DNA of 64,000 bases. Origin: a bacterium. GTDB lineage: Bacteria > Zhuqueibacterota > Zhuqueibacteria > Residuimicrobiales > Krinioviventaceae. How positions within the stretch are numbered: the first letter of the stretch is position 1; every line of letters starts with the position of its first letter. The notes beneath the pieces are model-generated. The model saw only the letters and a list, made by a program, of their open reading frames with translations, searched no databases and had not been told where the DNA came from. This document shows, piece by piece, positions 1 through 33,880 of this stretch. Made by a program: the position numbers and the translations under genes. The stretch covers positions 160,001-224,000 of the forward strand of contig CAXXMD010000002.1 of the NCBI GenBank assembly GCA_963675755.2, given 5' to 3'.

Positions 1-844
1 AAAGATTACATCCCAGGCAGAAATGCAGTATTCTCCGAAACGTACAGGAAGCAAGGCAGGTTTTATGGATTGGCTTGTTTCTCCATCTTTTGCAAGAGCA
101 GGAAAAGGTTTTGCGTTTGTCATGCTGGTTGTGATAGTAATGTTTGCGTCTTTCCAACTCATCACACGAATCGATCAAAATCCGACACAAAACCTTGTGG
201 CATACAATACAGTCAAAGTGGATACAGGTAAACGGTTGACCCTAACCCTGAGTGATGGCTCAAAAGTAACATTGGATGCTGGCAGTGAGTTTAAATATCC
301 CACCGAATTTGCTGATACAAGAGAGGTCTATTTAAAGGGTGAGGCCTTTTTTCAGGTAGCCCGCGATCCTAAACATCCATTTCATGTGCATGCGAACCAG
401 GCAATGGTCAAGGTGTTGGGAACAAAATTCAATGTCCGCGCCTGGGAAGATATTAATGCTGTAGAAGTAGCTGTTGAATCCGGTTTGGTTGCCTTTTCAA
501 ATAGCTCAGTCATAACGGATTCTGTTCTTTTGTCAAAGAATAAATATAGTTTTCTGTCTGCTGATGGAATCCCCTCTGAACCTGTTACCATCAACATTCA
601 GGAATATACAAGCTGGATGAATAATGAAAAATATTTTCATAATGCCAGTCTGAAAGAAGTAGTTGCCCAATTAGAAAGATGGTATGGATATCAGTTCTAT
701 GTTGATGATGAATCTGTTTTGGATAAAAAGTTGACAATTCATCTGAAACGAATCAATATGGATGATATCATTGAGCTAATTGCTGTACTGACCGATACCC
801 GTGTTGAGAGAAATGATAACGAATTCAGAATATTAAAAAAATAA
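1..844 (+). CDS. FecR-family anti-sigma factor (probably 5'-truncated by the window edge)
   Basis: TM segment then FecR motifs LSDGSKVTLDAGS, REVYLKGEAFFQV, VKVLGTKFNV, plus C-terminal SLKEVVAQLERWYG. The frame is open from position 2, so the true start may lie upstream of the ATG at 23. Confidence 0.92.
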   Translation, partial: KITSQAEMQYSPKRTGSKAGFMDWLVSPSFARAGKGFAFVMLVVIVMFASFQLITRIDQNPTQNLVAYNTVKVDTGKRLTLTLSDGSKVTLDAGSEFKYPTEFADTREVYLKGEAFFQVARDPKHPFHVHANQAMVKVLGTKFNVRAWEDINAVEVAVESGLVAFSNSSVITDSVLLSKNKYSFLSADGIPSEPVTINIQEYTSWMNNEKYFHNASLKEVVAQLERWYGYQFYVDDESVLDKKLTIHLKRINMDDIIELIAVLTDTRVERNDNEFRILKK

Positions 845-856
845 GGTATTAAATTA

Positions 857-3800
857 ATGAATCACTTTAGCAAAAGTATGATTTTCTTTCTGGTGATGTT
901 GATTTTTCAATTATCTTTTGCGCAGGAAGAACATGATTATAGCAGGGAAATGCTTGAGAAATTTGGAGGGCAAAAAATACCTTCAAATTTACTGAATAAA
1001 ATATCTTTGGATATTGATAACGAACCTCTCGAAGCTGCTCTTGATTCAATTACAACCCAGACACAGCTTGCCTTCAATTATCCCAGTAATGGTATACCCT
1101 TACAGAAAAGAATAACTATAAAAATGGATAAAGTATATGCTTTGGAAGCTTTATTGTCAATATTAAAAAATACAGGTACCACCTTACAGATCACCAATGG
1201 TGGAATGCTTGCTTTGTTACCCCAGAATGAACGTCCATCTAGTTACTTTGGTAGAATCAAGGGAACTGTTGTTGATAAAGATACAGGAGAACCTCTACCC
1301 GGTGCCAATGTAGTGGTTAAAGGCACTGCGATAGGTTCAGCCTCTAATATTGAAGGTGAATTTTCTATCCCAAGAATACAACCTGGAAGTTATACCCTTG
1401 ATGTGACTTTTATTGGATATAAGCAGGAATTTGTTGATGTGACCGTCCAGACCAACAAAACAACCCAGATAACTGTAAATATGGATTATGATGTGTTAGA
1501 AGGAACAGAAGTGATTGTTTCCGCACAGCGTGAGGGACAGATTGCAGCTATCAACCAGCAGCTGACAGCAAATTCAATTATGAATGTAGTATCTGCTGAC
1601 CGTATTCAGGAATTACCGGATGCGAATGCGGCAGAAGCAATTGGCCGGCTTCCGGGTATTGCGGTGCAACGAAGTGCAGGTGAAGCATCAAAAGTTATGA
1701 TACGCGGTTTGCAGCCCAAATTAAGCACCATAACAGTAAACGGCGTCAAGATGCCGGCAACTGACGGTCAGGACCGTTCCGTTGACCTCAGTATGATCTC
1801 ACCTGATCTACTCGCTGGTATTGAAGTGTTCAAATCCCCAACACCAGATATGGATGCCGAAGCGCTGGGTGGTACCGTAAACCTGGTTTTGCAAAAAGCC
1901 CCGGATGCACGAACCATTCGCGTTAGAGGATACGGCGGTTACAATCACCAAAATGATGACTGGGGTGATTATAAAAGTTCTGCAATGATGAGCAACCGGT
2001 TTTTTAACCGTTCATTGGGTGTGATAGCGGGTGTAAACCTTGAACGCTTTAACCGAGGCAGCCAGTCGTTAAGTGCAAGCTATACCAGCTTGGGAGTACG
2101 TGATGCAAGTGGAAAATACCTGCAACAAACGAATACGGTTTCACTGTCTAATGGAGCACAGATAAGAAAAAGATGGGGTGCAAATTTAAACCTGGATTAC
2201 GAGTTTTTAAACGGTTCTATTGTGCTGACAAATTTTTACAGTGAAACCTCGAGAGAAATTTTTAACCAGTCATTGAATTACAGTGCTGAAAATGCGACCA
2301 GTGGATATTCCGCAACATCTCAGGAAACAGAATTAAAAGCATTTTCAAACGCAATTAGCATAAATCAGAATGTTGCCGGAATGGACATTACCATGGGAGT
2401 CAGCCGTTACGAGATCAATTCCGACTATCCCTATTACAGTAGTCTCACGTTTACGCAAACAAGTTCTTTTAATACAAATCCGGATAACATGCCCGATGGC
2501 GGTATTTTATATAATCCCAACCTGACACCTGATCAAATACCTCTGGCTACTCATGTAGATCTTGAAAATACAAAGCTTAGAAATGCCAGTGTAGTAATGG
2601 ATAGTACCAACCAGGTTGATTATACATACCAGTTTGATCTTCAGAAACCTGTTGTAATAGGCAGTAAAATTGCCGGATTTATTAAAATGGGTGGAAAATA
2701 TTTTTCAACCAAACGAGACCATGGCGCGGGTACACGGGGTGATTTCTTTTATTACCTAGGTGGAAATCAGACTCAAACCGCTATCAATAATCATCCCACT
2801 TCTTTAATTTTGACATCAAATGGTGACTATATCTCGTTATTGAATTTTGTCGATCCCAATACTTCTGTTGATAATTTTCTTGATGGAGATTATGATTATC
2901 ACACCATATTGGATGAAGACAAGGTTAAAGACTGGAATACATACCACAATTCGGAATACCGCACTGACAGGTCAGGTATTGTCAATAATTATAATCTTGA
3001 AGAATCAATCAGTGCCGGTTATATCATGGCAAAACTGAATTTCGGACAAAAGCTGACGCTCATTCCGGGCGTACGCTATGAACATTCGGACAATGAATAT
3101 TCTGCAAAGTGGTCTACCATTTCTGGTGATTATGGTGCTTTAGGCTACGCACAAGATACAACAACCACTCAGAATTATGGACACTGGCTGCCGCATCTGC
3201 ATGTAAAATATCAGCCCTTGTCCTGGTTTGATTTGCGATTGTCTACTACCCGGACTCTTGCACGCCCGGATTTCAGTGCATTATCTCCACGTACGCAATT
3301 AAATATAGACACTCAAAGAATTGTTCGTGGAAATCCGGATTTAAAAGCTGCAAAATCATGGAATTATGATATTACTGCATCTATATACAGTAACAGCTTT
3401 GGACTGTTTACATTTAGTGGATTTTACAAAGACATTGAGGATATTTTTTACAGCAAGACAACCTATATCGTTAAAGATGATGATGTAATCAAATACCAAA
3501 TTCCGGGACAAACAAAAGGCTGGCGAATGACATATACTGAAAATTCAACAGCTCAAGTTTGGGGATTTGAAACGGATGTTCAAACACAGTTACGCTTTTT
3601 ACCCGGTTTGTTAAAAGGTATCGTGTTTAATGCGAATTATTCAGTGTTTAAATCTGAAGCATTGTTCCCTGAAACAGATTTGGATGTTGAAATTGATTAT
3701 TCAACTTATCCTTTCACATCCATCTATACAGTTACAGATAGTTACCGCAAAGGAAAAATGCCTGGCCAGGCTGACCAGATTGCAAACCTTGCTCTTGGAT

Positions 3801-4078
3801 ATGATATTGGTTCATTTTCTGTTAGAGTTTCTGCCAACTATCAGGGTAAATTTATATCCAGTGTTGGTACCATTGAAGAAATTGACAGATATACTGATGA
3901 ATTCTGGCGCTGGGATGCATCTGCAAAGTATCATCTAAATGATCATATGAGCTTGCATCTCAACCTTATCAACTTTACCAATCAATATGATCACCATTAT
4001 TTAGGTTATGTTACATATCCAACGAGCATGCAGTATTATGGTCGTGCGGGAAATGCTGGAATCGAATATGTATTTTAA
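857..4078 (+). CDS. TonB-dependent receptor with N-terminal STN signalling extension and CarboxypepD_reg-like domain (not SusC type)
   Basis: Signal peptide; STN-like ISLDIDNEPLEAALDSI; IKGTVVDKDTGEPLPGANV; plug motifs LPDANAAEAIGRLPG and KSPTPDMDAEALGG; C-terminal YVF beta-signal; directly after FecR. Confidence 0.93.
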   Translation: MNHFSKSMIFFLVMLIFQLSFAQEEHDYSREMLEKFGGQKIPSNLLNKISLDIDNEPLEAALDSITTQTQLAFNYPSNGIPLQKRITIKMDKVYALEALLSILKNTGTTLQITNGGMLALLPQNERPSSYFGRIKGTVVDKDTGEPLPGANVVVKGTAIGSASNIEGEFSIPRIQPGSYTLDVTFIGYKQEFVDVTVQTNKTTQITVNMDYDVLEGTEVIVSAQREGQIAAINQQLTANSIMNVVSADRIQELPDANAAEAIGRLPGIAVQRSAGEASKVMIRGLQPKLSTITVNGVKMPATDGQDRSVDLSMISPDLLAGIEVFKSPTPDMDAEALGGTVNLVLQKAPDARTIRVRGYGGYNHQNDDWGDYKSSAMMSNRFFNRSLGVIAGVNLERFNRGSQSLSASYTSLGVRDASGKYLQQTNTVSLSNGAQIRKRWGANLNLDYEFLNGSIVLTNFYSETSREIFNQSLNYSAENATSGYSATSQETELKAFSNAISINQNVAGMDITMGVSRYEINSDYPYYSSLTFTQTSSFNTNPDNMPDGGILYNPNLTPDQIPLATHVDLENTKLRNASVVMDSTNQVDYTYQFDLQKPVVIGSKIAGFIKMGGKYFSTKRDHGAGTRGDFFYYLGGNQTQTAINNHPTSLILTSNGDYISLLNFVDPNTSVDNFLDGDYDYHTILDEDKVKDWNTYHNSEYRTDRSGIVNNYNLEESISAGYIMAKLNFGQKLTLIPGVRYEHSDNEYSAKWSTISGDYGALGYAQDTTTTQNYGHWLPHLHVKYQPLSWFDLRLSTTRTLARPDFSALSPRTQLNIDTQRIVRGNPDLKAAKSWNYDITASIYSNSFGLFTFSGFYKDIEDIFYSKTTYIVKDDDVIKYQIPGQTKGWRMTYTENSTAQVWGFETDVQTQLRFLPGLLKGIVFNANYSVFKSEALFPETDLDVEIDYSTYPFTSIYTVTDSYRKGKMPGQADQIANLALGYDIGSFSVRVSANYQGKFISSVGTIEEIDRYTDEFWRWDASAKYHLNDHMSLHLNLINFTNQYDHHYLGYVTYPTSMQYYGRAGNAGIEYVF

Positions 4079-4102
4079 AAGGTTGTTGATTTTTGATTTG
4101 AA

Positions 4103-4129
4103 AGGAGGCTTGTGAGCAGATTTTCTTAA
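4103..4129 (+). promoter_or_regulatory. Orphan Shine-Dalgarno (AGGAGG) with a possible 5-codon GTG uORF, 78 nt upstream of the next start codon
   Basis: AGGAGG at 4103-4108, then ctt GTG AGC AGA TTT TCT TAA. The downstream gene has its own SD (GAGAGGT). Same arrangement at 31223. Confidence 0.45.
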
Positions 4130-4180
4130 TAATTGTAACTCAATCATTGGATAAAACTAATTCTAGAGAGGTATGGAAAA

Positions 4181-5749
4181 ATGAATAAAGCCCAAAAATT
4201 GTTACAAAATCTTATTATCATCAATTGCGTTGTACTCATGTTTGCTTCTATATTATCGGCAAGAGAAGTAGTTATCGATCCCAATATTCCAAACGAGATG
4301 TATAATGTGATCACTGCTGACTCTACAGCAAGACGTGATGCTGGCGAACCTACTTATTATGTATTGAAACGTGGTGGCGTGTATCCGATCCAAACAACGA
4401 TTAAGGCAGTTGACTATGATTTTAATTTAAAGGCTGAAGACGGAGAAGGAGCTTTACCTTTAGTTGTTCCTGCACCCACAGAAGATGGCGGATACAATCG
4501 TTTTATATATTTTTACCAGAGCGGAACTTTTGAAAATATACATTTCGATATGACCCGTCCCAATGGCGCGTACAGTGATAGATCACTTAGAATTTATGGT
4601 ACTGATGCAGATATCTCTTTTAAGGGCTGTATCATGAACCATGACCGTGGTGGTTTCATTGTGATCATGAGTGACAGTAATGATATCTTTATTGAAGATT
4701 GTTTGTTTGGAAATGGTAATGTTCATAACGCAATAGGTGGAAACGGACGCTTACTGGAATGCCGTAGCGGTTCGGTAGACACTATGATCGTTACCAACTC
4801 TACTTTTTACAATTTGTCTGACCGCGTTGTCCGTAATATGGGCACAGAGATCAATTACCTGGAAATGAACCATGTTACCGGTATGAATGCGCAATCACAC
4901 ATGGGATGTATTCAATTAGGTAAAACCCACAAGTTTAAATACACCAATAATATCTTTGTGAACTATTGCGCTGAAGGTGATCATCCGCTTGTAAACGAAA
5001 TAACATCTCCTGAAAAGGCATTTTACGCGATTGCGGTTGATACATTGTACGATGATCACGATTTTATCATTAATTACAACAATATGTATATTGAACAAAA
5101 TCTGCTTGATTATTTTGCAAGCAATGATTCTGTAGGTGTTCCCGGTGTTGTTGCTCCGTTACTGGCATCTGCTTTAACCAATACAGATGCTACTCATTTT
5201 TCTGAAGTTCTCGAGTTCGTAAACGGTCCGGATTCCATTATCGATTTCATTACTGCAATCTATGAAGATCCTAATGCTACAGAATTTCCCAATAACTGGT
5301 GTGATAAAGACATTACCACATTAGATTTTGCTTACTCTGTTGATTCACAGTCTTATACCGCAGGTAAAGGTGGATTTCCGCTTGGCGATTTGAACTGGTT
5401 CCCTGAAAAGAAACAGGAATGGGCAGGTTGGTATCCTACTGATGTTGAAGAACAGGGTACGGCAGTGGTTGAGGATTTCAAATTGTTTCAAAACTATCCC
5501 AATCCTTTTAATCCTTCAACTGTTATTGATTACACACTCCTCAAATCCAGTAATGTTAAACTGACTGTTTACAACGCATTGGGACAGCAGGTAGCAGATC
5601 TGGTCAATCAAAAACAGGCTGCGGGTACCTATTCAGTGAACTGGAATGCATTAGATAATCAGACCAATCCATTGTCTGCTGGTATTTATTTTTACAAACT
5701 TGAAACAGAATCATTTTCTCAAGTAAATAAAATGGTTCTATTAAAGTAA
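4181..5749 (+). CDS. Secreted acidic beta-helix-like protein with GDLNWFP motif and T9SS/FlgD-type C-terminal sorting domain; TBDR partner
   Basis: Signal peptide; YVLKRGGVY; repeated beta-helix-like turns (TNSTFYN, TNNIF); GGFPLGDLNWFP; LFQNYPNPFNP...KMVLLK tail; paralog of 31299..32945. Confidence 0.8.
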   Translation: MNKAQKLLQNLIIINCVVLMFASILSAREVVIDPNIPNEMYNVITADSTARRDAGEPTYYVLKRGGVYPIQTTIKAVDYDFNLKAEDGEGALPLVVPAPTEDGGYNRFIYFYQSGTFENIHFDMTRPNGAYSDRSLRIYGTDADISFKGCIMNHDRGGFIVIMSDSNDIFIEDCLFGNGNVHNAIGGNGRLLECRSGSVDTMIVTNSTFYNLSDRVVRNMGTEINYLEMNHVTGMNAQSHMGCIQLGKTHKFKYTNNIFVNYCAEGDHPLVNEITSPEKAFYAIAVDTLYDDHDFIINYNNMYIEQNLLDYFASNDSVGVPGVVAPLLASALTNTDATHFSEVLEFVNGPDSIIDFITAIYEDPNATEFPNNWCDKDITTLDFAYSVDSQSYTAGKGGFPLGDLNWFPEKKQEWAGWYPTDVEEQGTAVVEDFKLFQNYPNPFNPSTVIDYTLLKSSNVKLTVYNALGQQVADLVNQKQAAGTYSVNWNALDNQTNPLSAGIYFYKLETESFSQVNKMVLLK

Positions 5750-5884: not shown

Positions 5885-8125
5885 ATGAAATATTTGTATT
5901 TGTTTTTGGTGATCTCTGTCTTAACCAGTAAAATTTTTGCTGTTGATTTTTATATTTCTCCAAAAGGATCTGATCAAAATTCTGGTTCTATTGAAAAACC
6001 CTTCAAAACAATAAGTGGGGCAAAAGAACATGTACGCATATTCTTACAAAATCATGATGTCAATGATGATATAAATGTGTGGTTGCGGGAGGGCACATAT
6101 TATCTTGAAAAATCAGTCGAGTTTGATAATCGGGATTCTGGTAATGAAACCGCAAAAGTAATTTATCAATCCTTTTCGGGCGAGGATGTGTTTTTATCTG
6201 GTGGAAAATCTGTGCCGGTAAATTTGGTGGAATCTGTTTATGATACCCGGATTTTAGATCGTTTACTCTCTGATCAGGCAAAAAAGCATTTAAAGCAAAT
6301 TGATTTAAAAACTATAAAAATTACAGATTTTGGTGAGCACAAACAATTCGGATTTGGCTTGCCGGTAGTCTGTACACCCTTGGAATTCTATATTAATAAT
6401 GAAAAAATGGATCTTGCTCAATATCCCAATGATGGATTTGTTAAAATCGGTCAGGTTATTGATCATGGTTCAGTGCCTCGCAGAGATGATTATGAAAACA
6501 TCAGAGGGGGAACTTTTGAATATTCTGATTTTCGTCATGAAAAGTGGCAGGATATAAATAACGTTTGGCTAAAAGGTACATTTAACCGGGGATATGCTGA
6601 TGATTATATTCAAATAAAAAGTATTGATACATTAAAAAAGCAGATAACACTGGCATCACCGCACATGTACGGACTTGCTTCTGGAAAAGATTTTCAGCAA
6701 TACAAAGCCATCAATATATTTGAAGAAATTGATACGCCGGGTGAGTGGTATCTCGACCGGGACAAGAGTATATTGTATTTTTGGCCACCTGATAATGTAA
6801 CATTGGAAAGTATTTGTGTATCCATGTTAAAAGATCCCATGGTAGTTTTTGAAAATTCATCTTTTATTGAATTCAGAAATGTTGTTTTTCAGAATACCCG
6901 GGGTATGGGTATTTACATTGAAGAGGGTAGTAATATCCTGATCAGGGGATGCGTACTGCGGAATATCGGTACAGTTGCTGTTATGATGGGGCAGGGTGCG
7001 AAACAGACATTCCCGCATATTACACATGATCAATATACCGGCGAACCAGTATCCCGAGAAATCGGGTCGTTGAGGCCGCATTTATATGACAATTCAGTAT
7101 GGGACCGCAAGGCCGGACATCATCATGGTGTGCAGAGCTGTGAAATATATAATACAGGGATTGGTGGAATTATTTTAAGTGGTGGCAGCAAAAAGACTCT
7201 CACTCCTGGATACTGTTTTGTGGATAATTGTAAAATATATGATTTTCAGACCCGGGTAGGCACCCAGGGAAATGCCATTGCAATTGACGGCTGTGGTAAC
7301 AGGATCAGTCATTGTGAGATTTTTAATTCTGAACAGCAGGCGATTCTGGTTTACGGCAATGATCATGTTTTCGAGTATAACAACATTCATCATATTGCAT
7401 TGAATACCAACGATGCTTCTGCCTGGTATACAGGTAGAAATCCTAGTGACCGGGGGCATATAATCCGTTACAATTTTTTTCATCATATAGGACGCCCTGA
7501 TCGTGAACTTATAATGGGAATTTACTTTGATGATTCCGCCTGTGGTGTGGATGTGATTGGAAATATATTTTATAAAGTAGCATCGTATGGTACCATCTAC
7601 AGTAATGCCGGTTCAGACTTGAAAATACGCAATAACATTTTTATTGAAGGATATGGCCCTGCACTGCAATTGAAATCCCGCTGGTGGGATCGTCTATTAA
7701 CCGCGCGGGAGAACAACCTCGGTGAAAACAGTATTTTCTATAAACGCCTAGTCAAAGAAATTGACCTGAAAAGTCCTCCTTACAGTACACATTATCCTGA
7801 ACTCATGAATTGGATGGACATTACCGATGATGGTGAAAACTTGTATGGTATGTTTCCTGAGAGGAATGAGTTCAGTGATAATATAATTGTAAATTATCCG
7901 GAAACCTGCCGACTGACAGGCATTTACAGCAAGTTCCAATTTGGTAACAATTGTGTGATCAAAGGAGACCCCGGTTTTTCTGATTATGGAAATATGGATT
8001 TCAACCTGGAAGATTATTCGGTGGTCTATCGCAAACTTGCAAATTTTAAGCCTGTTCCATTTAATGAAATGGGGCTCTATAAAGATGATTTTAGAAATGT
8101 TGTTGAAAGACTAATTATAAAATAA
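5885..8125 (+). CDS. Secreted right-handed parallel beta-helix protein, GH141-like
   Basis: Signal peptide; FYISPKGSDQNSGSIEKPFKT, WLREGTYYL, LAQYPN, EIDTPGEWYLD, GIYFDD; multiple PbH1-like repeats. Confidence 0.65.
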   Translation: MKYLYLFLVISVLTSKIFAVDFYISPKGSDQNSGSIEKPFKTISGAKEHVRIFLQNHDVNDDINVWLREGTYYLEKSVEFDNRDSGNETAKVIYQSFSGEDVFLSGGKSVPVNLVESVYDTRILDRLLSDQAKKHLKQIDLKTIKITDFGEHKQFGFGLPVVCTPLEFYINNEKMDLAQYPNDGFVKIGQVIDHGSVPRRDDYENIRGGTFEYSDFRHEKWQDINNVWLKGTFNRGYADDYIQIKSIDTLKKQITLASPHMYGLASGKDFQQYKAINIFEEIDTPGEWYLDRDKSILYFWPPDNVTLESICVSMLKDPMVVFENSSFIEFRNVVFQNTRGMGIYIEEGSNILIRGCVLRNIGTVAVMMGQGAKQTFPHITHDQYTGEPVSREIGSLRPHLYDNSVWDRKAGHHHGVQSCEIYNTGIGGIILSGGSKKTLTPGYCFVDNCKIYDFQTRVGTQGNAIAIDGCGNRISHCEIFNSEQQAILVYGNDHVFEYNNIHHIALNTNDASAWYTGRNPSDRGHIIRYNFFHHIGRPDRELIMGIYFDDSACGVDVIGNIFYKVASYGTIYSNAGSDLKIRNNIFIEGYGPALQLKSRWWDRLLTARENNLGENSIFYKRLVKEIDLKSPPYSTHYPELMNWMDITDDGENLYGMFPERNEFSDNIIVNYPETCRLTGIYSKFQFGNNCVIKGDPGFSDYGNMDFNLEDYSVVYRKLANFKPVPFNEMGLYKDDFRNVVERLIIK

Positions 8126-8162
8126 TTACGGGTACTGGTAGCAATAAATACAGGAGATTGTG

Positions 8163-10622
8163 ATGAGAAACAGATTTAATGTGGTATTTCGGATGATTTG
8201 TATGATAGTGTTAACTGCCATTTTACAGTCGGTAAATGCTGAAACTTTTAGAGTTGATGATTCAAATGTGAATGATGTTCTTGCTAATGCACAGCCGGGA
8301 GATGAGATCGTCTTTACGAATGGCTATTATTCAGGTTTACAGATTAGTATTAATTCCTCCGGCACTGAAGAATCACCCATAATTCTTCGTGCGGATTCTA
8401 CAGGCAAGGTGATTTTTACCGGTACAGGTTCAAGTTTGCGTTTTTTTGGCAATTGGGTTATTGTTGAGGGTTTTCGGTGGTTTAATGTGCACAAGAAAGT
8501 TTCAACACCTGTAATTTTATTCAAAGGTGCCAAACATAATGTTTTCAGAAACAACGAGATCTACAATTCTGGTGCAATAGAGGGAAGCTCTTCACGCGGT
8601 GTTATAAGAGTCATGAATACGTCGCAGAATAATATCATTGAGAATAACCGCTTTGAACATTCTTTAAGCATGGGAATCCAGGTCTGGTGCTGGGATGACG
8701 ATACAAACAATACAGACAATATTATCCGTAATAATCATTTTTTAGACCATATAGGTTACGAGGTGTTACAACTGGGGCAGGGCTCAAACAGTGCTTTTGT
8801 TGATCAGCGGACACTTGTTGAAAACAATCTCTTTGAGAATATAACCATGCAGGACCCTGAGCTGATTTCCTGCAAGACTTCAAAAAATATTATCAGGCAC
8901 AATACATTCAGAAATTGTAACAGTATGCTGGTGTTACGTACAGGTGCAGGTACTATTGTAGACGGAAACTGGTTTTTAAATTCTCATGGTATCCGCATAC
9001 ATGACCGAGATCATGTGATCATTAACAACTATATTGAAGGTCTTCCCTCTGTAATAAATTCAGATAATGAAGGTATTACAATTTATTCCGGTAATATGGA
9101 AAGACCCAATACGGATGGTTCTCATTATGCCGTTAAAAATGTACTCATTGCCAACAATACGGTTATCAATCATACAGCGGAACATATACAGATTGGCAGG
9201 AATGCTAATAACTGGCAGTTTGCACCGGACAGTTGCACTATTGAAAACAACCTGGTTGTGAATGATTCAGGTATTGGTATTGATTTTACAGTGGGAACAA
9301 ATTTTACTTTTAGCAAAAACATGGTATGGTCCACCGGCACCGGAACAAATGGCAATGCCCCGGATATGATTGTGTCAGACCCTTTATTTGAGAAAGACGA
9401 TATCATCTATCGTTTACAAGCAGCCAGTCCGGCGATTGATTCTGCACTTGTCGATACCCTTGTTCATATCGACATTGAGGGGCAAGCACGCGGTGAATTT
9501 CCAGATATTGGTGCGGATGAAGTGTCTGCGGATTCTGTTTTGTATACTCCTTTAAACGTTGATGATATTGGTCCCTCGGATATGCCCGAACGTAAAGAAT
9601 TCAGTCTTGATACAAAAGTTGTTGGCGATGGTAGTGTATCCATTGAACCGGAAGGCCCTGTTTATTTGGAAGGGACCGTGGTTAAAGTTACACCCGTAGC
9701 AGCAGAAGGCTTTTATTTTTATTGCTGGCGTGGAAATGCTATGAGCAATAAAATCCCTTATTATGTAAAAATGGATGATAATAAAAGTGTGACCGCTGTA
9801 TTTTATGCATACAAGAATAACACATTTATCCCCACTGACGACGCTTATATCGGTGGCGGAGAAAATGGGGACGGTAACTGGGGAGACAGCAAGAAATTAT
9901 ATGTACGGAATACCGAAAATGAAAAAAATATGCGAAAAACCCTGCTGAAATTTGATCTCCGCAAAGAAGATTATTCGCATGCTGATCATGCAATTTTGCG
10001 TTTGTATGTAAACAATATTTATAATGAAAGCACCTGTCCCTTTGTGATATACAATGTTGATGACAACTGGAAGGAATACGATGTAACCTGGAATACTGCT
10101 CCTGCAGTTATTTCGACTATTGATAGTTTTCGTATCAGCACTACAAAAGCATATGCCGAATTTGACATCACGGATTGCGTCAACAGCGAACTGGAAAATG
10201 ATGATATTATATCCATATCTCTCTGGGACACAACACAAAGCAACGCAGTTGCTTATTTTAAAAGTAAAGAAGAAAGTTCAGAATTACCTGAACTGGTGCT
10301 GACCAGCATTTCAGATGTATCTGAAAATATAGCCGGTATTGCAGATAAATTTTTATTAGACCAGAATTATCCCAATCCTTTTAATGCCGGAACGACAATA
10401 AAATATGGCATCAATAAACCGGGAAATGTTCTGATCAATATTTATAATATAAAAGGCGAGCTGATCAGTCGTCTTGTTGATGGTTTTAAACCTGCAGGTG
10501 AATATACTGTAAAGTGGAACGGTTCGACCGAATCTGGTATATCTGTCTCGAGCGGTGTTTACTTTTACTCAATCGAGTTTGATTCATTTGTTTTGAGGAA
10601 AAAAATGATCATGCTCAAATAG
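8163..10622 (+). CDS. PL6 (chondroitinase B/alginate lyase)-like beta-helix + B-repeat/Flg_new-like domain + DNRLRE (CBM96-like) domain + sorting tail
   Basis: AQPGDEIV, DPELISCKTSKNIIRHNTF, LVLRTG, GIRIHDRDHVIINNY, PDIGADE; PTDDAYI...LLKFDL...VTWNTAP; LDQNYPNPFN. ATG 8163 follows AGGAG; the ORF track starts at GTG 8160. Confidence 0.8.
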   Translation: MRNRFNVVFRMICMIVLTAILQSVNAETFRVDDSNVNDVLANAQPGDEIVFTNGYYSGLQISINSSGTEESPIILRADSTGKVIFTGTGSSLRFFGNWVIVEGFRWFNVHKKVSTPVILFKGAKHNVFRNNEIYNSGAIEGSSSRGVIRVMNTSQNNIIENNRFEHSLSMGIQVWCWDDDTNNTDNIIRNNHFLDHIGYEVLQLGQGSNSAFVDQRTLVENNLFENITMQDPELISCKTSKNIIRHNTFRNCNSMLVLRTGAGTIVDGNWFLNSHGIRIHDRDHVIINNYIEGLPSVINSDNEGITIYSGNMERPNTDGSHYAVKNVLIANNTVINHTAEHIQIGRNANNWQFAPDSCTIENNLVVNDSGIGIDFTVGTNFTFSKNMVWSTGTGTNGNAPDMIVSDPLFEKDDIIYRLQAASPAIDSALVDTLVHIDIEGQARGEFPDIGADEVSADSVLYTPLNVDDIGPSDMPERKEFSLDTKVVGDGSVSIEPEGPVYLEGTVVKVTPVAAEGFYFYCWRGNAMSNKIPYYVKMDDNKSVTAVFYAYKNNTFIPTDDAYIGGGENGDGNWGDSKKLYVRNTENEKNMRKTLLKFDLRKEDYSHADHAILRLYVNNIYNESTCPFVIYNVDDNWKEYDVTWNTAPAVISTIDSFRISTTKAYAEFDITDCVNSELENDDIISISLWDTTQSNAVAYFKSKEESSELPELVLTSISDVSENIAGIADKFLLDQNYPNPFNAGTTIKYGINKPGNVLINIYNIKGELISRLVDGFKPAGEYTVKWNGSTESGISVSSGVYFYSIEFDSFVLRKKMIMLK

Positions 10623-10717
10623 TAAGCACAAAAAACTGACCATTAACTACACATTATAGGGCTGTACGGATTTTGTTGAGAGCAAGTTGACTGGCCTTAT
10701 ATTGTGGAGGAGGTAAT

Positions 10718-13700
10718 ATGAATTGTAATCTATTTTCAAGATTGTCAAGGATTGTACTGATTCTAAGTTTGTTTTTTCTTGCAAGATATGCCGATGCAAC
10801 AGTTTATAACGTTGATGATTCGGATATCAATTCCGTGATTTCTAACAGTGCACAGGCAGGAGATACACTGATTATGGATGACGGTACTTATACGGACCTT
10901 GCGATTATTCTGGGTGTGTCCGGAACATCGCAGGCACCGATTACTTTGTTGCCCGAATCTGTAAACGGTGTAACATTCAAGGGTGCATCTTCACGCATCC
11001 AGTTCAGCTCTGATTGGTGGATTGTTGACGGTTTTAAATGGGATTCGGTATTAACTACCAGTTCTACCTCTGTCATCTTTTTTACAGGAGCAGATAATAA
11101 TGTGTTTCGAAATTGTACAGTTTCAAATTCAGGTAGGACCACTGTCGGTTCCAAAACAGGAATTATTCGTGTAATGAACAGTTCACATGACAATATCATT
11201 GAATATAACCGGTTTGATAATTTGGTAAATGTTGGAGTCCAGATATGGGCTTGGGACACGGATACCGATAATACAGGAAACATCATACGATATAATCATT
11301 TTGTTAACCTAACCGCATTTGAAATAATCCAGCTCGGACAAGGAGGATCAAGTGCGTTTGCAAGCCAGCAGACGGTTTTAGAATATAATCTGTTCCAGAA
11401 TATTGAAATGGAAGATCCCGAGCTCATTTCTTCCAAATCATCAGACAATATTCTCCGTTATAATACGTTCAGAGACTGCAGTTCGATGCTGGTACTTCGG
11501 ACTGGTGCACATGCAATTGTAGAAGGAAACTGGTTTTTTGATTCAAAAGGTATTCGTGTTCACGATCGGGATCATATCATTATTAATAACTATATTGAAG
11601 GTCCTTCTTCTGAAACAAATTCCGATAATGAAGGCATTACCTTGTATTGCGGAAATATGGAACGGCCCTATACAGATGGTACCCATTATACTGCCAGGAA
11701 TGTTCTGGTTGCCAATAATACGGTAATCAATCATGAGGCAGAACACATCAATGTTGGCAGGAATAGCACCTATCCCTATTACCCGGACAGTTGCAGGATC
11801 ATCAATAACCTTGTCTCCAATAATGTGGGCATTGGTATCGAATATGAAGCCGGTACAAATATAACCTGGCAGAACAATATTGCGTATCCTACCGGCAGCG
11901 GAACAGCCGGTGATGCTCCGAATCTGATTACGCGGGACCCATCTCTGACATTTGATGATCCCATTTATCGCCCGCAATCGGGCTATGCTGCTGTTGACAG
12001 TGGTGTTACCGTTACAGATGTAAGTGATGATATAGAAGGGCAGGACCGGGACAATTATCCCGATATCGGTGCTGATGAATACTCGCAGGATTCCGTTCTT
12101 CGATCTCCGCTTACCATCTCTGATGTAGGACCGTATGCCGGACAAACCGTTCAATATACGTTAACAGTTACACCATCAGGTTCCGGGATTGTTACGCTTG
12201 ATCCTTCCGGTGGCACATATGAATTGAGCACCGTAGTAACTATGACTGCCATTGCAGACAGTTCATGGAGATTCACCTCGTGGAGCGAGGATGCCAGCGG
12301 TACCGGCAGTGTAAAACCCGTATCCATGTATGATGATTATAATATTACTGCTAATTTTGCACAGGTATCCTCTACACCGGTAAATCTGACAGTAGCGTCC
12401 GTTGAAGCTTCGGAAGATGACGGCAATATTGCTGCAAATACCCTCGATGATGATTTCGATACCCGATGGTCTGCCGAAGATGGACCGCAGTACCTTGCCT
12501 TTGATTTGGGTTATATATACAAAGTGAGCAGTCTTGAAATAGCCTGGTTTAACGGAGATCAGCGGTCATCCTATTTTCAGATCGATATCTCTTCAGATAG
12601 CTCAAACTGGACAACCGTATTAACCGACACAAGCTGTGGTACTACTACAGCCCTTGAAGCATTTGATATTACGGATGTTGCCGCAAGGTATGTACGTTAT
12701 GTGGGCAATGGGAATTCTTCCAATGACTGGAACAGTGTAACGGAAGTGAATATTATTGGTATGATAAATTCTACTGCTGGTCAGTATACCCTCTCAACTG
12801 GCACAACAGGATCGGGATCAGTTACGCTTGATCCTTCGGGAGGTACATATAACCCGGATACGGAAGTCGAGTTAACAGCTGTACCTGCCAGCGGTTGGCG
12901 ATTTGATTTATGGAGCGGCAGTTTGTCTGGTAGCCAAAATCCTGATACTCTGACCATAGACAGCAACAAATCGGTAACAGCCACGTTTGTACAGGTTTGC
13001 ACTCTTTCTGTGAATACAACCGGTTCCGGCAGCGTAACGCTTAATCCCTCAGGTGGTGTATATGATGTAAACACTGAAGTGATATTAACACCGGTGCCTG
13101 TTTCGGGTTGGGAATTCGATTCGTGGAGTGGAGATTTGAGCGGCAGTACTGTTCCCGATACCATTACCATGAATGCTAACAAGAGTATAACTGCGGTGTT
13201 TACCGAACAAACCGGTGAACCGGATACAACGACAGTATATGCCGCGGCAGACGCTTTTGTAAGAGCTGGCGATTATGCTGATGACAATTTTGGTAGTGAA
13301 ACAAGACTTCAACTCAAAGAACTTGCTTTAAATTATCTGTACCACTCTTATATCAAGATGGATTGTGCTTCGGAAGGCTTAAACGATTGCAACTCTGCAA
13401 CATTGAAACTGAATATCTATTATGTTCAAGCCGCTTATACACTCAGTATTTATAAAACCTCCGATGACTGGACTGAAGGTGGTATTACATTCAATAACGC
13501 TCCATCCGCGGGTGATCTGGTAACAACGGTTTCGGTCAGTGCGGCTGGTACATATAATATTGATGTAACGGACTATGTTGATGCTGAACTTGCAGATGAC
13601 GATACAATCTCGTTTCTGCTCATTGGTCAAAACACCAACAGTTATATACGAAGCCGTGAAACAGCGTATGACCCTGAATTGGAAATTATAACCGGCTCAG

Positions 13701-14023
13701 CAGAAAAAAAACTTCCTCCGGGTTTTTTAGAGCCGGTTATTCCTTTGGCTTACAGCCTGCACCAGAATTGGCCTAATCCATTTAACCCGGTAACGACCAT
13801 TCGGTATGAACTGAGTGAACCCAGTTATGTAAATCTTTCGGTCTATGATATAAACGGCCGGCTTGTTTCTATCCTGGTTGATCAGCATCAGGAAACCGGC
13901 ATTTATCAGCAAAAATGGTCATCTGTCAGCAGGGAGGGCAGGACTATGTCTACCGGTATATATTTCTACAAATTAAAAGCCGGCACTTTTCAGGATGTGA
14001 AAAAGATGCTGCTTGTGAAATAA
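10718..14023 (+). CDS. PL6-like lyase + F5/8 type C (CBM32) + three B-repeat/Flg_new-like repeats + DNRLRE (CBM96-like) + sorting tail
   Basis: Catalytic region paralogous to the previous gene (DPELISSKS, LVLRTG); ASEDDGNIAANTLDDDFDTRWSAE; ADAFVRAG...WTEGGITFNNAP; LHQNWPNPFNP; SD GGAGGAGG. Confidence 0.82.
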   Translation: MNCNLFSRLSRIVLILSLFFLARYADATVYNVDDSDINSVISNSAQAGDTLIMDDGTYTDLAIILGVSGTSQAPITLLPESVNGVTFKGASSRIQFSSDWWIVDGFKWDSVLTTSSTSVIFFTGADNNVFRNCTVSNSGRTTVGSKTGIIRVMNSSHDNIIEYNRFDNLVNVGVQIWAWDTDTDNTGNIIRYNHFVNLTAFEIIQLGQGGSSAFASQQTVLEYNLFQNIEMEDPELISSKSSDNILRYNTFRDCSSMLVLRTGAHAIVEGNWFFDSKGIRVHDRDHIIINNYIEGPSSETNSDNEGITLYCGNMERPYTDGTHYTARNVLVANNTVINHEAEHINVGRNSTYPYYPDSCRIINNLVSNNVGIGIEYEAGTNITWQNNIAYPTGSGTAGDAPNLITRDPSLTFDDPIYRPQSGYAAVDSGVTVTDVSDDIEGQDRDNYPDIGADEYSQDSVLRSPLTISDVGPYAGQTVQYTLTVTPSGSGIVTLDPSGGTYELSTVVTMTAIADSSWRFTSWSEDASGTGSVKPVSMYDDYNITANFAQVSSTPVNLTVASVEASEDDGNIAANTLDDDFDTRWSAEDGPQYLAFDLGYIYKVSSLEIAWFNGDQRSSYFQIDISSDSSNWTTVLTDTSCGTTTALEAFDITDVAARYVRYVGNGNSSNDWNSVTEVNIIGMINSTAGQYTLSTGTTGSGSVTLDPSGGTYNPDTEVELTAVPASGWRFDLWSGSLSGSQNPDTLTIDSNKSVTATFVQVCTLSVNTTGSGSVTLNPSGGVYDVNTEVILTPVPVSGWEFDSWSGDLSGSTVPDTITMNANKSITAVFTEQTGEPDTTTVYAAADAFVRAGDYADDNFGSETRLQLKELALNYLYHSYIKMDCASEGLNDCNSATLKLNIYYVQAAYTLSIYKTSDDWTEGGITFNNAPSAGDLVTTVSVSAAGTYNIDVTDYVDAELADDDTISFLLIGQNTNSYIRSRETAYDPELEIITGSAEKKLPPGFLEPVIPLAYSLHQNWPNPFNPVTTIRYELSEPSYVNLSVYDINGRLVSILVDQHQETGIYQQKWSSVSREGRTMSTGIYFYKLKAGTFQDVKKMLLVK
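12155..13204 (+). repeat. Three intragenic ~70-aa repeats (YTLxV...GSGxVTLxPSGGxY...WxFxxWS), the first separated from the other two by the CBM32
   Basis: Copies start near 12155, 12785 and 12998; DNA gttacgcttgatccttc recurs at 12191 and 12821. Confidence 0.8.
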
Positions 14024-14062: not shown

Positions 14063-14097
14063 GATTAAATGGTTTGAATTGTGAGAGTCAGGAGACA

Positions 14098-16050
14098 ATG
14101 GGCGATAAAAATATAAAGTGTTTGAATAAAAAACAGTATTCCATATTTAATATTGTGAAAAAAATATTTTTACCGATAATAGGATTTCTCTCTTTTTTAT
14201 GGATAGTATATCGTGTTATATCAAAACCGAGCCGAATCCAGTATCCTTGTATTAGAATGTCTGCTCCTGTTGCGTCAGGGTTTTTAATCTGGATAATGGG
14301 TCTATTTTCATCCGCCTATGCAATCCATCAGATAAAAAGATTTGTAAAAAGCAGACGATGGATTTTATCGGTTACGCTGATGTTTGTTGTACTGATTTTA
14401 ACAGTTATTTTTACTTATGATCCACAATTACCTGTTTATGCAAACTCGAACAGTTACCTTGCACCCAATACGCCTGTGGGGACTCCGCGGGGTGTAAAAC
14501 CCGGACGCGTAGTTTGGAGTTGGAATCCGAAAGCAACTAATGAAAACTGTACAAATGCATTCGGTGATGCCTACTATTTATCACAGAATACCAATATAGA
14601 TGTTGTAAACAGCATGATTGATGAATCAATTCTTCGTTTAACCGGAGCAGAAAATCTAAAATGCGCCTGGGATTCGCTGTTTGTTTATTTTAACCGAAAT
14701 CACGCCAAGGTCAACCATACCTATAACCCAGGTGAGAAAATATGTATTAAAACAAATGCGGTAGGTACAAGTGTAGATGAGGATTACAATGTAACCAACC
14801 TGTCCCAATACCAGATGGCGAGAACATCACCACAGCCGGTACTGGTTATACTGCGTCATCTGATCAATATCTGTGGTATTGCGCAGGAGAATATAAGTGT
14901 AGGAGACCCGTCCCGATATATGCAAAATGAAGTGTTTGATTTACTGCATGGCGAGTTTCCGGATGTAAAATATATCTGCCGGCAGGGCACCAAGGGCAGA
15001 ACAAAATCCGTAGCAACCGACAATGCGTCACTTTTCTATTCGGACCGGGGTACAATTTTACGGACCGGTTCGTGGGAAGACGCATCGTCCGGTTCTGCTG
15101 TGCATAATGACAAACTGTTCACAGTGATCGAAAATGCTGATTACCTGATCAACATTTCCGCGTTCAAGGCGCATGAGCGGGCGGGTGTTACCTTTTGTGC
15201 CAAAAACCATTTTGGATCACAGGGGCGCAGCAACTCCCGGCACATGCACATGGGGCTTGTGAGTCCCGATCAGGGAGAGGCTGAACGAAGTGGTTACGGC
15301 CTGTACCGGATCCAGGTTGATCTTATGGCGCACAAAGACCTTGGAGGCAAAACTGTATTATTCATGGTTGATGGATTGTGGGGCGGTTCAGGCGCCAATG
15401 ATCCGCCGCGAAAATTCCAAATGATGCCGTTCAATAATGACTGGTCGTCTTCGATTTTCATGTCGCAGGACCAGGTTGCGCTTGAATCGGTATGTTATGA
15501 TTTTCTCAAAGCAGAATTTACGGAAGACAATCCCTACGGCTCGTGGCCGCAGATGGTTGGTACGGATGATTATCTGATGCAGGCGGCAGATAATCAATAC
15601 TGGCCGGAAGGGTTTGTTTATGATCCGGAAAAAGACGAGACTGCTGTAACAAGCCTTGGCGTTCATGAACACTGGAACAATGATATAGATAAACAGTACA
15701 CGGGAAATCTGGAAGGTTCAGGCGGTATAGAACTGGTGAAAATTGAGAATACAACCTCTGTAGAATCGGAGGAAAAGAGCTTACCAGATGACATTCAGCT
15801 ACTGCAGAATTATCCCAATCCTTTTAATGCAAAAACCGTTATTTCTTTTTATCTGGAAAAGCCATCACAGGTGTCTTTAAAAATATATGATATTCAGGGA
15901 CACCAGATAGAAACCGTATGTAGTGGAATACAGCCGGCCGGTTTTAGTAGAATCCATTTTTCAGGCAGTCAATATGCCAGCGGGGTCTATTTTTATGAAC
16001 TGTTAACCGAATACAGCATTTTGAGACGAAAGATGGTTCTGATCAGGTAA
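14098..16050 (+). CDS. DUF362-domain protein with N-terminal TM helices and T9SS/FlgD-type tail
   Basis: RVISKPSRIQYPC, GVKPGRVVW, ADYLINISAFKAHERAGVTFCAKNHFGS, SQDQVALESV, GVHEHWNN; LLQNYPNPFN. ATG 14098 follows AGGAG; the ORF track starts at 14074. Confidence 0.78.
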   Translation: MGDKNIKCLNKKQYSIFNIVKKIFLPIIGFLSFLWIVYRVISKPSRIQYPCIRMSAPVASGFLIWIMGLFSSAYAIHQIKRFVKSRRWILSVTLMFVVLILTVIFTYDPQLPVYANSNSYLAPNTPVGTPRGVKPGRVVWSWNPKATNENCTNAFGDAYYLSQNTNIDVVNSMIDESILRLTGAENLKCAWDSLFVYFNRNHAKVNHTYNPGEKICIKTNAVGTSVDEDYNVTNLSQYQMARTSPQPVLVILRHLINICGIAQENISVGDPSRYMQNEVFDLLHGEFPDVKYICRQGTKGRTKSVATDNASLFYSDRGTILRTGSWEDASSGSAVHNDKLFTVIENADYLINISAFKAHERAGVTFCAKNHFGSQGRSNSRHMHMGLVSPDQGEAERSGYGLYRIQVDLMAHKDLGGKTVLFMVDGLWGGSGANDPPRKFQMMPFNNDWSSSIFMSQDQVALESVCYDFLKAEFTEDNPYGSWPQMVGTDDYLMQAADNQYWPEGFVYDPEKDETAVTSLGVHEHWNNDIDKQYTGNLEGSGGIELVKIENTTSVESEEKSLPDDIQLLQNYPNPFNAKTVISFYLEKPSQVSLKIYDIQGHQIETVCSGIQPAGFSRIHFSGSQYASGVYFYELLTEYSILRRKMVLIR

Positions 16051-28115: not shown

Positions 28116-28250
28116 GGAGATTAATTATTATTTTAATCTTGTTTATTAATTATATATGTAGTAAAAGATAATTGAAATAAATGTAACACTTTTTTATCCA
28201 TTTTTATCTTCCAGAATAATCTGAATTATATGCGATTGGAGGTAATAACA

Positions 28251-33079: not shown

Positions 33080-33880
33080 ATGAAACATATTCTTATGTTT
33101 TTGCTCGTGTTTATTTTATCATCTGTTGGGAATTTGATTGCCCAGGAGGATAATGATATATCTTTACATCTGTTTGGTACGTTCTCACTTCCTACAGGTG
33201 ATTACGGTAAAGATATTACCGATAATTCAATTCCCACTCGTCGCTTTGGATTCAATATCGGTGATGATATCGGTTTGGCAACAACAGGTTTTGGCGCAGG
33301 TGCTGAATTAACATCAGCAGTGTGGTTTAAGGGACTGCAATGGATGTTTAGTGTTAATTATATACTCAATCCTGCAGAGAATTCAGCTCTGGAACCGGTT
33401 TATAATGACTTGCTTTCAGACACTACAAAAAGTGTTTCTGTTGATTTTGAATTAGGGAAATGGATTAATATTCCGATATTTAGTGGTTTTCAGTACAATT
33501 ATAACATTTCTTCAGATTTTATGATTTATGGTATGCTACAGGGTGGAATGAATTTTTCAAGACGTCCTTCTCAAAAAGCAGTTGTTCAGATTGTTCCAAG
33601 TGAAGCAAGCACTGTAGTTGCTCGTTCAGATCTTGTTGCTGAAGATACCAGTTATGAATTTGCACGGGATTTTGGATTTGGTACAGGTATGGGTATTGTT
33701 TTTAAAGATCGTATTAATCTAGGTGTAAGATATTTTAATCTCAGCCAACCCAAGTATGAAGGTACCCGCCAATTATCTGAAAAAGTTTTCCCTGAAATAT
33801 ATGCCAGAGAAAATTATATCCTCGGTGAAGAGCGTTCTATCTCTATGTTATTGGTTACTCTTGGTATTGTATTATTCTAA
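33080..33880 (+). CDS. Putative small outer-membrane beta-barrel protein
   Basis: Signal peptide, SLPTGDY, amphipathic strands (GFGAGAEL, IPIFSGFQY, INLGVRY), C-terminal LGIVLF. Confidence 0.6.
   Translation: MKHILMFLLVFILSSVGNLIAQEDNDISLHLFGTFSLPTGDYGKDITDNSIPTRRFGFNIGDDIGLATTGFGAGAELTSAVWFKGLQWMFSVNYILNPAENSALEPVYNDLLSDTTKSVSVDFELGKWINIPIFSGFQYNYNISSDFMIYGMLQGGMNFSRRPSQKAVVQIVPSEASTVVARSDLVAEDTSYEFARDFGFGTGMGIVFKDRINLGVRYFNLSQPKYEGTRQLSEKVFPEIYARENYILGEERSISMLLVTLGIVLF

Follow-up and report, generated by a model that had tools for sequence, protein, structure and literature searches.

Introduction

Prediction of polysaccharide utilization loci (PULs) relies on SusC/SusD pairs, and outside the Bacteroidia, annotation of glycan uptake usually goes no further than a TonB receptor plus hypothetical proteins. 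In the carbohydrate utilization containing TonB-dependent receptor (CUT) loci of Xanthomonas and Caulobacter, the receptors work, to our knowledge, without a dedicated surface partner. No surface partner is mentioned for CUT-type receptors in the accessible text of a recent review of glycoside transporters (PMC13543919, 2026). Here, we analyzed a co-directional gene run of 64 kb (G000:C2:160001-224000, hereafter the window, meaning the whole stretch of DNA) in which two genes for TonB-dependent receptors (TBDRs) are each followed by a gene for an acidic, secreted beta-helix protein, hereafter the partner. Receptor and partner proved to be a conserved two-gene unit, or cassette. With slightly better than even confidence, we read the partner as a surface glycan-binding protein that a type IX secretion system (T9SS) delivers and that feeds a classical receptor, rather than as a SusD-like lid.

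Results

Two receptor-partner pairs in one window

A preliminary description of this DNA had reported two TBDRs, each followed by a homologous, acidic secreted protein of about 530 amino acids, and the sequences bear this out. Partners 1 and 2 (P0001 and P0002, Table 1) aligned over their full length at 32% identity (E = 8e-73), and all of the sequence blocks quoted as common to both were recovered in the alignment (L.RGG.Y, EG.GALP...PA, GNGR...VDTM.V.NSTFY, GGFP.GDLNWFP.KK.EW, and QNYPNPFNP). The coordinates given for receptor 1 and for both partners were also correct, whereas 28251, given as the start of receptor 2, is an internal start of an open reading frame (ORF) that begins at 28230. 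In P0001, the beta-helix domain occupies approximately residues 28-435 and the sorting domain residues 439-519 (nt 5495-5737); in P0002, the signal peptide is predicted to end before Gln24, and the sorting domain spans residues 464-545 (nt 32688-32933). The isoelectric point (pI) of the N-terminal domain (N-domain) was 4.07-4.38 across all seven partner paralogs in the genome (4.38 in P0001). The sorting domain was the only Pfam match of the partners above cut-off, with a sub-threshold match to DUF4957 in P0001. No terminator-like site was detected between receptor and partner in either pair, including the 102-nt gap of pair 1, and promoter and terminator scans of the window gave site counts no better than chance.

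Receptor and partner are inherited together

Paralogs of the partner in this genome were found with phmmer and a hidden Markov model (HMM) of the N-domains, and the receptor clade was defined by an HMM of the three receptors in the window. Scored with the clade HMM, the 55 TBDR-like ORFs of the genome included eight at 660-1929 bits, with the next at 205.6. All seven partner paralogs (21%-32% identity) were encoded directly downstream of a clade receptor. Among 167 genomes of the window's phylum, 96 encoded the partner family, a tally that includes two unpublished genomes (G158 and G162) that contributed nothing else. For this phylum, we considered the 30 best-per-genome loci, including the window's own; the C-terminus of a clade receptor was found directly upstream and on the same strand in 27 of them, or in 27 of the 29 that could be judged (in one, the contig ends 84 nt upstream of the partner). 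In a second group, the GTDB phylum of a Melioribacter metagenome-assembled genome (MAG), the family was present in 56 of 301 sampled genomes, and the same arrangement was seen in all 30 best loci and in seven of the eight weakest hits, which were fetched with wide flanks. The single weak hit without an adjoining receptor was a true DUF4957+DUF5123 protein (58.7 bits on the partner HMM). A Melioribacter MAG gave nine matches, of which some fell inside genes with tandem copies. As a negative control, we used 78 loci fetched by a generic sorting-domain motif, mostly unrelated T9SS cargo: a clade receptor lay upstream in all three that encoded a partner N-domain, and in none of the other 75.

The pairing is therefore close to obligate and far beyond chance, and the counts from two phyla, set against the control, decisively support the earlier proposal that homologs of the partner lie preferentially beside TBDRs as a conserved unit. 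Co-divergence of the two proteins, for which a comparison of trees had been suggested, was evident from receptor and partner trees of 72 pairs (Mantel r = 0.77, not reached in any of 500 label permutations, maximum 0.11), and the nearest neighbor came from the same locus in both trees for 45 of the 72. The cassette duplicates and travels as a unit. One could instead suppose that adjacency reflects co-regulation alone, or that the partner has a role outside import, for example as an adhesin or structural surface protein, as might be suggested by one pair of this genome with no carbohydrate genes nearby (L079). However, the pair has been kept in order over at least two phyla and some 70 loci while the other genes of these loci vary freely, and we regard this explanation as very improbable.

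Table 1. Position of the receptor-partner pairs and of adjoining features in the window, with profile scores
Feature	Position	Strand	Evidence
TonB-dependent receptor 1, 1073 aa	857..4078	+	TIGR01782 410.6 bits; SusC TIGR04056 84.1 bits
Partner 1 (P0001), 522 aa	4181..5749	+	Signal peptide, acidic beta-helix domain, T9SS type A sorting domain
TonB-dependent receptor 2, 970 aa	28230..31142	+	TIGR01782 372.2 bits; SusC TIGR04056 66.4 bits; CarboxypepD_reg-like domain, plug, 22-strand-type barrel
Partner 2 (P0002), 548 aa	31299..32945	+	Signal peptide, beta-helix, GDLNWFP cap, T9SS type A sorting domain
TonB-dependent receptor 3, 968 aa	35039..37945	+	TIGR01782 392.8 bits; SusC TIGR04056 60.4 bits; partnerless
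FecR-type anti-sigma factor	23..844	+	Pfam FecR 67.2 bits, FecR_C 46.2 bits; directly 5' of receptor 1
266-aa protein with signal peptide and C-terminal Phe	33080..33880	+	OMP_b-brl sub-threshold; directly 3' of partner 2
Pair-1 context: one beta-helix protein and two PL6-type lyases	5885..14023	+	Pfam Beta_helix, Chondroitinas_B, CBM96, Por_Secre_tail

The best named homologs came from MAGs of candidate division KSB1, Fidelibacterota, Calditrichota, and Ignavibacteria. For pair 1, the nearest neighbors of both receptor and partner came from a genome of the other sampled phylum (L123), which hints that whole cassettes move between phyla. Two further arrangements were seen beside the cassette. 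A 455-aa T9SS beta-helix protein of the same genome (G000:C2:1089351-1090718, minus strand) weakly matched the N-terminal half of the partner HMM (E = 1e-10); it is encoded two genes upstream of a receptor of another clade, and so does not have the cassette arrangement. In five of the loci fetched by the generic sorting-domain motif (L008, L009, L045, L053, and L059), unrelated T9SS cargo was directly followed by a different TonB receptor that scored 75-98 bits with the clade HMM, and this reversed order may represent another receptor-cargo arrangement.

Receptors of the classical type

The receptors had been likened to those of Xanthomonas and Caulobacter on the basis of plug motifs (PDANAAE and TPDMD). 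Both motifs are visible in the sequences (PDANAAE and TPDMDA), and all three receptors in the window exceeded the cut-off of TIGR01782 (TonB-Xanth-Caul, 310 bits), with model positions 2-868 covered. None reached the cut-off of the SusC/RagA model TIGR04056 (368.25 bits), and the match to that model was limited to positions 2-182, corresponding to the N-terminal domain plus the first part of the plug. The AlphaFold2 model of receptor 2 (predicted local distance difference test, pLDDT, 81.7) was closest in Foldseek to the classical TonB-dependent transporters (TBDTs) PhuR, PfeA, PirA, Cir, HasR, and TbpA, and no SusC or RagA chain was among its best 50 matches. A sequence search of the PDB with the receptor profile returned matches at the level of the N-terminal domain or plug only. 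Both sequence profiles and the predicted structure thus assign the receptors to classical TBDTs of the TIGR01782 type, and not to SusC.

Receptors 1 and 2 share 40% identity, and receptors 2 and 3 share 68%. Receptor 1 matched the Pfam families Plug, TonB_dep_Rec_b-barrel, and CarbopepD_reg_2, and its layout comprises an N-terminal extension, a CarboxypepD_reg-like domain, plug, and barrel. The extension matched STN at 25.5 bits, under the cut-off of 28.4; it is probably a signaling extension that is coupled through the adjoining FecR protein to an extracytoplasmic function (ECF) sigma factor lying off the window. Two other pairs in the genome (L081 and L082) share this layout of ECF sigma factor, FecR, and long receptor. 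Downstream of receptor 3, after a 468-nt gap, is a gene for an 851-aa T9SS protein (38413-40968) with no other known family. We considered it as a divergent partner and rejected this, as it has the sorting domain alone in common with the partner and was missed by the partner HMM. A second ORF of 851 aa (44100-46655) has no Pfam match and is unrelated to the first.

Fold and superfamily of the partner

The AlphaFold2 model of P0002 (mean pLDDT 88.7) consists of a right-handed beta-helix (residues 25-356) followed by a C-terminal helix and loop cap that carries the GDLNWFP motif (360-447); a disordered linker (447-467) then leads to an Ig-like sorting domain. Its top structural match, well above the rest, was to residues 424-747 of 7dmk (Z 31.2, root-mean-square deviation 2.4, 296 aligned residues, VIA-align), which form the C-terminal domain of the two-domain alginate lyase BcAlyPL6, of polysaccharide lyase family 6 (PL6). 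The same domain of AlyGC (5gkd) was second (Z 23.7), and further matches were to beta-helix enzymes and tailspikes (Z 16-24). The C-terminal domain of PL6 enzymes is described in the accessible text of a recent study as non-catalytic, binding polyguluronate and shaping the active site of the N-terminal domain (PMC12992946, 2026).

Relatedness was difficult to detect by direct sequence search: a PDB search with the partner profile gave nothing significant, and the gathering score of DUF4957 (PF16318, 30.8 bits) was missed by P0001 (19.5 bits), with no hit for P0002. A tandem homolog (P0123) also scored below threshold on DUF4957/DUF5123 (19.8 and 20.9 bits). Protein atlas clusters pointed to DUF4957/DUF5123 for the partner, and DUF5123 (PF17161) was present in 20 of the 301 genomes sampled. 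When a profile of seven partner N-domains was aligned with DUF4957/DUF5123 proteins using hhalign, a match over 167 columns was obtained (probability 98.6%, E = 9e-16) that includes a common FID.R...NSTF block. The DUF4957/DUF5123 profile in turn matched residues 427-736 of 7dmk (E = 4e-18), as well as 7o77 and 5gkd. The two profile comparisons therefore unite the partner and the SusCD-linked lipoproteins with the C-terminal domain of PL6 in a single superfamily. Judged from these profiles, the partner is a distant homolog of the DUF4957/DUF5123 lipoproteins, a link that is new here.

At 50% identity and with E up to 1e-10, the family falls into 1,013 clusters. Its longer forms carry two to three tandem copies, or are of about 850 aa and add a carbohydrate-binding module (CBM35) above cut-off. 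No fusion to a catalytic domain was seen among the 150 best representatives or in a search for longer homologs, which returned only three tandem-duplicated forms and is weak evidence on fusions. Conserved positions across 72 members were mostly an Asn ladder and aromatics (Y65 and W432). The GNGRFIDTR motif was not retained among paralogs, and such variation in surface motifs fits substrate-specific binding.

Many of the structural neighbors are enzymes (PL6, PL31, PL9, and PL1; glycoside hydrolase families GH141 and GH28; and phage depolymerases; Z 16-24), the loci target uronate-rich polymers that are typical substrates of beta-helix enzymes, and some charged residues are conserved. The partner could accordingly be a surface or secreted lyase or hydrolase of a new beta-helix family, whose products are sized for the transporter. 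Yet it is the inactive C-terminal domain of PL6, rather than its catalytic N-terminal domain, that gives the clearly best match, and the partners contain neither Chondroitinas_B (PF14592), which is present in the neighboring genes at 8160-10622 and 10718-14023, nor any other catalytic Pfam domain. The region around GNGRFIDTR is also not kept among paralogs, one partner family serves loci with very different enzyme sets, and fusions are only to CBM35 or further copies. An ordinary free lyase is disfavored, and we consider an enzymatic role in general unlikely, if still a reading to be taken seriously.

SusD and the partner

As previously noted for the 64 kb, no SusD-like lipoprotein is encoded here: there was no match to SusD families among the 37 ORFs of at least 150 aa in the window, nor to SusD_RagB or SusD-like_3 (PF07980 and PF14322) in the whole, 98%-complete genome. 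No gene following a receptor had a SusD Pfam match, and the window holds no tandem susC/susD pair in the sense of PULDB. The partner itself does not resemble SusD/RagB, being modeled as a beta-helix, matching no SusD family, and having no lipobox.

In the Melioribacter-MAG phylum, partner and SusD co-occurred freely. Of the 301 genomes, 34 encoded both, 22 the partner only, 130 SusD only, and 115 neither (Fisher p = 0.37), meaning that SusD was also present in 34 of the 56 partner-positive genomes. Replacement of SusD by the partner lineage by lineage was rejected on this lack of a negative association. From the same genomes, we fetched twelve DUF4957/DUF5123 proteins (approximately 520-540 aa) with their upstream DNA. 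All twelve loci had the order SusC-like, SusD, then a DUF4957-DUF5123 protein with an optional preceding fn3 domain, and all twelve proteins had a Cys at approximately position 20-27 after a hydrophobic stretch, as in lipoproteins.

Could the partner be a true SusD equivalent, in a stable 1:1 complex with its receptor and working as a pedal-bin lid with a T9SS anchor in place of lipid? Its gene sits exactly at the susD position, the pairing is near-obligate and the trees co-diverge, SusD is lacking from window and genome, and conservation across paralogs is highest in the membrane-proximal C-terminal cap. Against this, the receptor is not SusC-like in sequence or in its best structural matches, and classical TBDTs close with their own loops. 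Homologs of the partner in canonical PULs follow SusD and coexist with it, and at the genome level SusD and partner are not mutually exclusive. A GD..W-like motif is, by eye, also invariant near the C-terminus of the SusCD-linked lipoproteins. We had considered GDLNWFP as a receptor-docking motif specific to the cassette, and set this aside because the similar GDPRW, in the same by-eye comparison, ends the SusCD-linked DUF5123 lipoproteins. Overall, we find a lid improbable. The suggestion that the partner is a functional analogue of SusD thus holds in part: surface glycan capture is the best reading of its role, but the partner is not a counterpart of SusD by descent or position, as its relatives are encoded after SusD.

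Predicted export by type IX secretion

Delivery by a T9SS-like route instead of lipid anchoring, also proposed earlier, agrees with the sequence evidence. Scores on the type A sorting-domain model TIGR04183 were 42.9 bits for P0001 and 44.5 bits for P0002 (cut-off 23), and PF18962 (Por_Secre_tail) was matched at 34.0 bits (cut-off 27). In a survey of the 150 best family representatives, a C-terminal sorting-domain HMM matched 135, and most of the other 15 had a similar strand pattern by eye; a lipobox was found in 0 of the 144 with a complete N-terminus. The Gln right after the predicted signal peptide (Gln24 in P0002) is conserved, and Gln in this position is typical of T9SS cargo. A search of the genome for the machinery, covering PorU and SprA, detected two copies of PorU (884 and 877 bits, cut-off 420) and SprA in two adjoining frames (518 bits, cut-off 200). 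The partner is accordingly predicted to be a type A cargo of the T9SS, and not a lipoprotein.

The SprA region (G000:C3:1879556-1885587) comprises open frames of 654 and 1456 aa, and the gene may be split, frameshifted, or affected by an assembly error. Two family members (P0242 and P0254) are without a sorting domain; by eye, their C-terminal ends resemble dockerins instead.

Other bacteria release some of their type A cargo, which would allow the partner to be a soluble scavenger of oligosaccharides that docks transiently on the receptor, as HasA does on HasR. The presence of HasR-HasA among the structural neighbors of the receptor is compatible with such a role, and dedicated gene pairing would suit a cognate carrier and receptor. 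An elongated beta-helix of 45 kDa, with CBM35 or tandem copies in some members, is nonetheless more like a polymer-binding surface protein, and we judge a released scavenger to be quite improbable.

Locus context

Genes of CUT type in the window encode FecR, two PL6, two GH28, PL22-like, GH88-like, GH2, and GH20 proteins, and SSF- and Nramp-type transporters. It therefore combines TBDRs, carbohydrate-active enzymes (CAZymes), inner-membrane transporters, and a regulator, as does a CUT locus or PUL in the wide sense. The two PL6-type lyases and the beta-helix protein downstream of partner 1 (Table 1) are the probable depolymerases of the pair-1 locus. Six of the seven pairs in the genome lie amid hybrid two-component system (HTCS), ECF-sigma/FecR, and DeoR regulators and genes for PL6, GH28, PL11, PL22-like, and sialidase-like BNR proteins; the enzymes near these pairs act on acidic polymers, and PL6 genes were near only two of the seven. 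At 52 foreign loci, 28 of the immediate downstream genes had a Pfam hit and 17 of these were carbohydrate-active (four GH88, three GH2, three Pel9A-like, two SASA esterases, and one each of GDSL esterase, GH27, sulfatase, GHL10, and pectinesterase).

In the partner-2 orthogroup (among L084-L113), homologs of the 266-aa gene that follows partner 2 lay directly after the partner in 12 of 12 loci, and therefore this subtype is a three-gene unit of receptor, partner, and small putative barrel. The gene is single copy in the genome, OMP_b-brl was matched below threshold in all four members tested, and the protein is probably a small outer-membrane beta-barrel.

Three members of the Nramp family (187-250 bits) are encoded at 16090-17313, 21513-22757, and 53427-54668, next to sugar-acid catabolic genes (GFO/IDH oxidoreductases, an amidohydrolase, and dihydrodipicolinate synthase-like and xylose-isomerase-like genes). 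This is an odd setting for metal transporters and suggests that these Nramp-family members take another substrate. A DUF362 protein with a T9SS sorting domain is encoded at 14074-16050, and in two foreign loci (L090 and L103) the gene directly downstream of the partner is also a DUF362 gene.

Discussion

A surface glycan-binding partner as the preferred reading

Because DUF4957/DUF5123 homologs follow SusC-SusD, and because the partner resembles the PL6 C-terminal domain, we favor a surface glycan-binding protein over a SusD-like lid. Surface retention, glycan binding, lack of catalysis, and hand-off to the receptor are what we infer for the partner. The cassette would then form the two-gene outer-membrane uptake core of a SusD-less PUL. 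After passage across the inner membrane by Sec and across the outer membrane by type IX secretion, PorU would remove the C-terminal sorting domain and the partner would stay tethered to the surface by its C-terminal end. There, it may bind acidic (uronate-rich) polysaccharide chains, or fragments cut by the neighboring T9SS-exported lyases and hydrolases, and so raise the local fragment concentration at its cognate receptor for import. In pair 1, the signaling extension of the receptor would in addition be wired to the FecR anti-sigma factor.

Several observations weigh against this reading. GH141 (BT_1002), PL31, PL9, and PL1 enzymes match the P0002 fold at Z 17-24, and charged positions kept in at least 80% of members (D43, R/K116, D/E147, D/E198, and H229) could form a site. 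The partner pI of about 4.1-4.4 is awkward for binding a polyanion unless cations bridge the two. Type A cargo can be released from the cell rather than anchored. With respect to pairing, there were two true exceptions among the 29 testable loci of the window's phylum (L099, with GH28 upstream, and L112, in which the partner has an in-frame TGA), receptor 3 is the sole partnerless member of the eight clade receptors in the genome, and L079 is the pair of this genome without carbohydrate genes nearby. Congruent trees are no proof of contact either, because the receptor and partner genes are linked. A fold prediction of receptor residues 112-970 with the partner cap (residues 345-450), in which the score was 0.00 and the fold of the cap fragment was itself uncertain, counts neither for nor against contact.

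Significance

The only names given to the family in the sources are 'T9SS type A sorting domain-containing protein', 'FlgD Ig-like domain containing protein', and 'hypothetical protein'. A full-text literature search (with subscription journals and supplements outside it) turned up no account of a TonB receptor that is paired with a T9SS-exported beta-helix protein. The cassette is not described in the accessible text of the Caldithrix and Melioribacter genome papers (PMC5317091 and PMC3534657) or of the transporter review (PMC13543919). A glycan-uptake locus with a surface binding protein is of an already known kind; what is new here is the placing of the partner in one superfamily with SusCD-associated lipoproteins and with the C-terminal domain of PL6, the use of a negative control, and the co-occurrence of SusD and the cassette, which do not exclude each other. 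The view that this is a distinct PUL architecture, put forward in the preliminary description, was upheld insofar as these SusD-less, PUL-like loci are widespread over genomes and no paper describing them was found.

The cassette provides a second, easily recognized marker pair for polysaccharide loci, in lineages that abound in sediments, aquifers, and digesters. It further offers a testable role for the uncharacterized DUF4957/DUF5123 proteins of gut and marine Bacteroidota, and ties type IX secretion to nutrient import, a connection that is open to experiment. A bolder proposal is that receptor and T9SS-anchored partner make up a stable complex at the surface, a 'utilisome' core that evolved independently and replaces SusC/SusD. 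We think this rather unlikely. If it were true, polysaccharide import would require type IX secretion in KSB1-like bacteria, Calditrichota, Ignavibacteria, Fidelibacterota, and many other bacteria of the Fibrobacterota-Chlorobiota-Bacteroidota (FCB) group, and the beta-helix superfamily would have been recruited twice, with a lipid anchor behind SusD and with a T9SS anchor behind a classical receptor.

Comparison with known systems

Among known systems, the DUF4957/DUF5123 lipoproteins are closest: they have a homologous beta-helix domain, and their genes likewise come directly after the outer-membrane import genes in a glycan locus; both are presumably surface-exposed. They differ in their N-terminal Cys, frequent fn3 spacer, and lack of a sorting domain, and in following SusD (12 of 12), whereas the partner has no lipobox, carries a T9SS sorting domain, directly follows a non-SusC receptor, and remains below Pfam cut-offs. 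In the full-text literature, we found no functional study of DUF4957/DUF5123, which are named in a single paper and only in passing, and the label 'surface glycan-binding protein (SGBP)' for them therefore denotes locus position only. The PL6 C-terminal domain (BcAlyPL6 7DMK, AlyGC 5GKD, and BoPL6) belongs to the same superfamily and is the best structural match. It is, however, fused to a catalytic domain, while the partner is free-standing, has its own export signal, and is paired with a transporter.

At the level of the whole cassette, SusC/SusD (RagA/RagB) is similar in organization: a transporter gene is followed by that of a dedicated surface partner, there are multiple copies per genome, these lie in CAZyme loci, and both systems are under HTCS or ECF-sigma/anti-sigma regulators. 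SusD, though, is an alpha-helical lipoprotein of the tetratricopeptide repeat type attached by lipid, and the partner is predicted to be an all-beta helix attached through the T9SS. CUT loci share with the cassette TIGR01782 receptors, degradative enzymes, inner-membrane transporters, regulators, and the lack of SusD; unlike in CUT loci, the partner gene is nearly always attached here, and the receptor has a CarboxypepD_reg-like N-terminal domain. Lastly, TbpA-TbpB, HasR-HasA, and XusA-XusB also combine a non-SusC transporter with a cognate surface or secreted protein that captures the ligand, and their transporters are among the structural neighbors of receptor 2. In these systems, in contrast to the cassette, the ligands are iron carriers, and the partners, unrelated in fold, are either lipoproteins or a hemophore secreted by a type I system.

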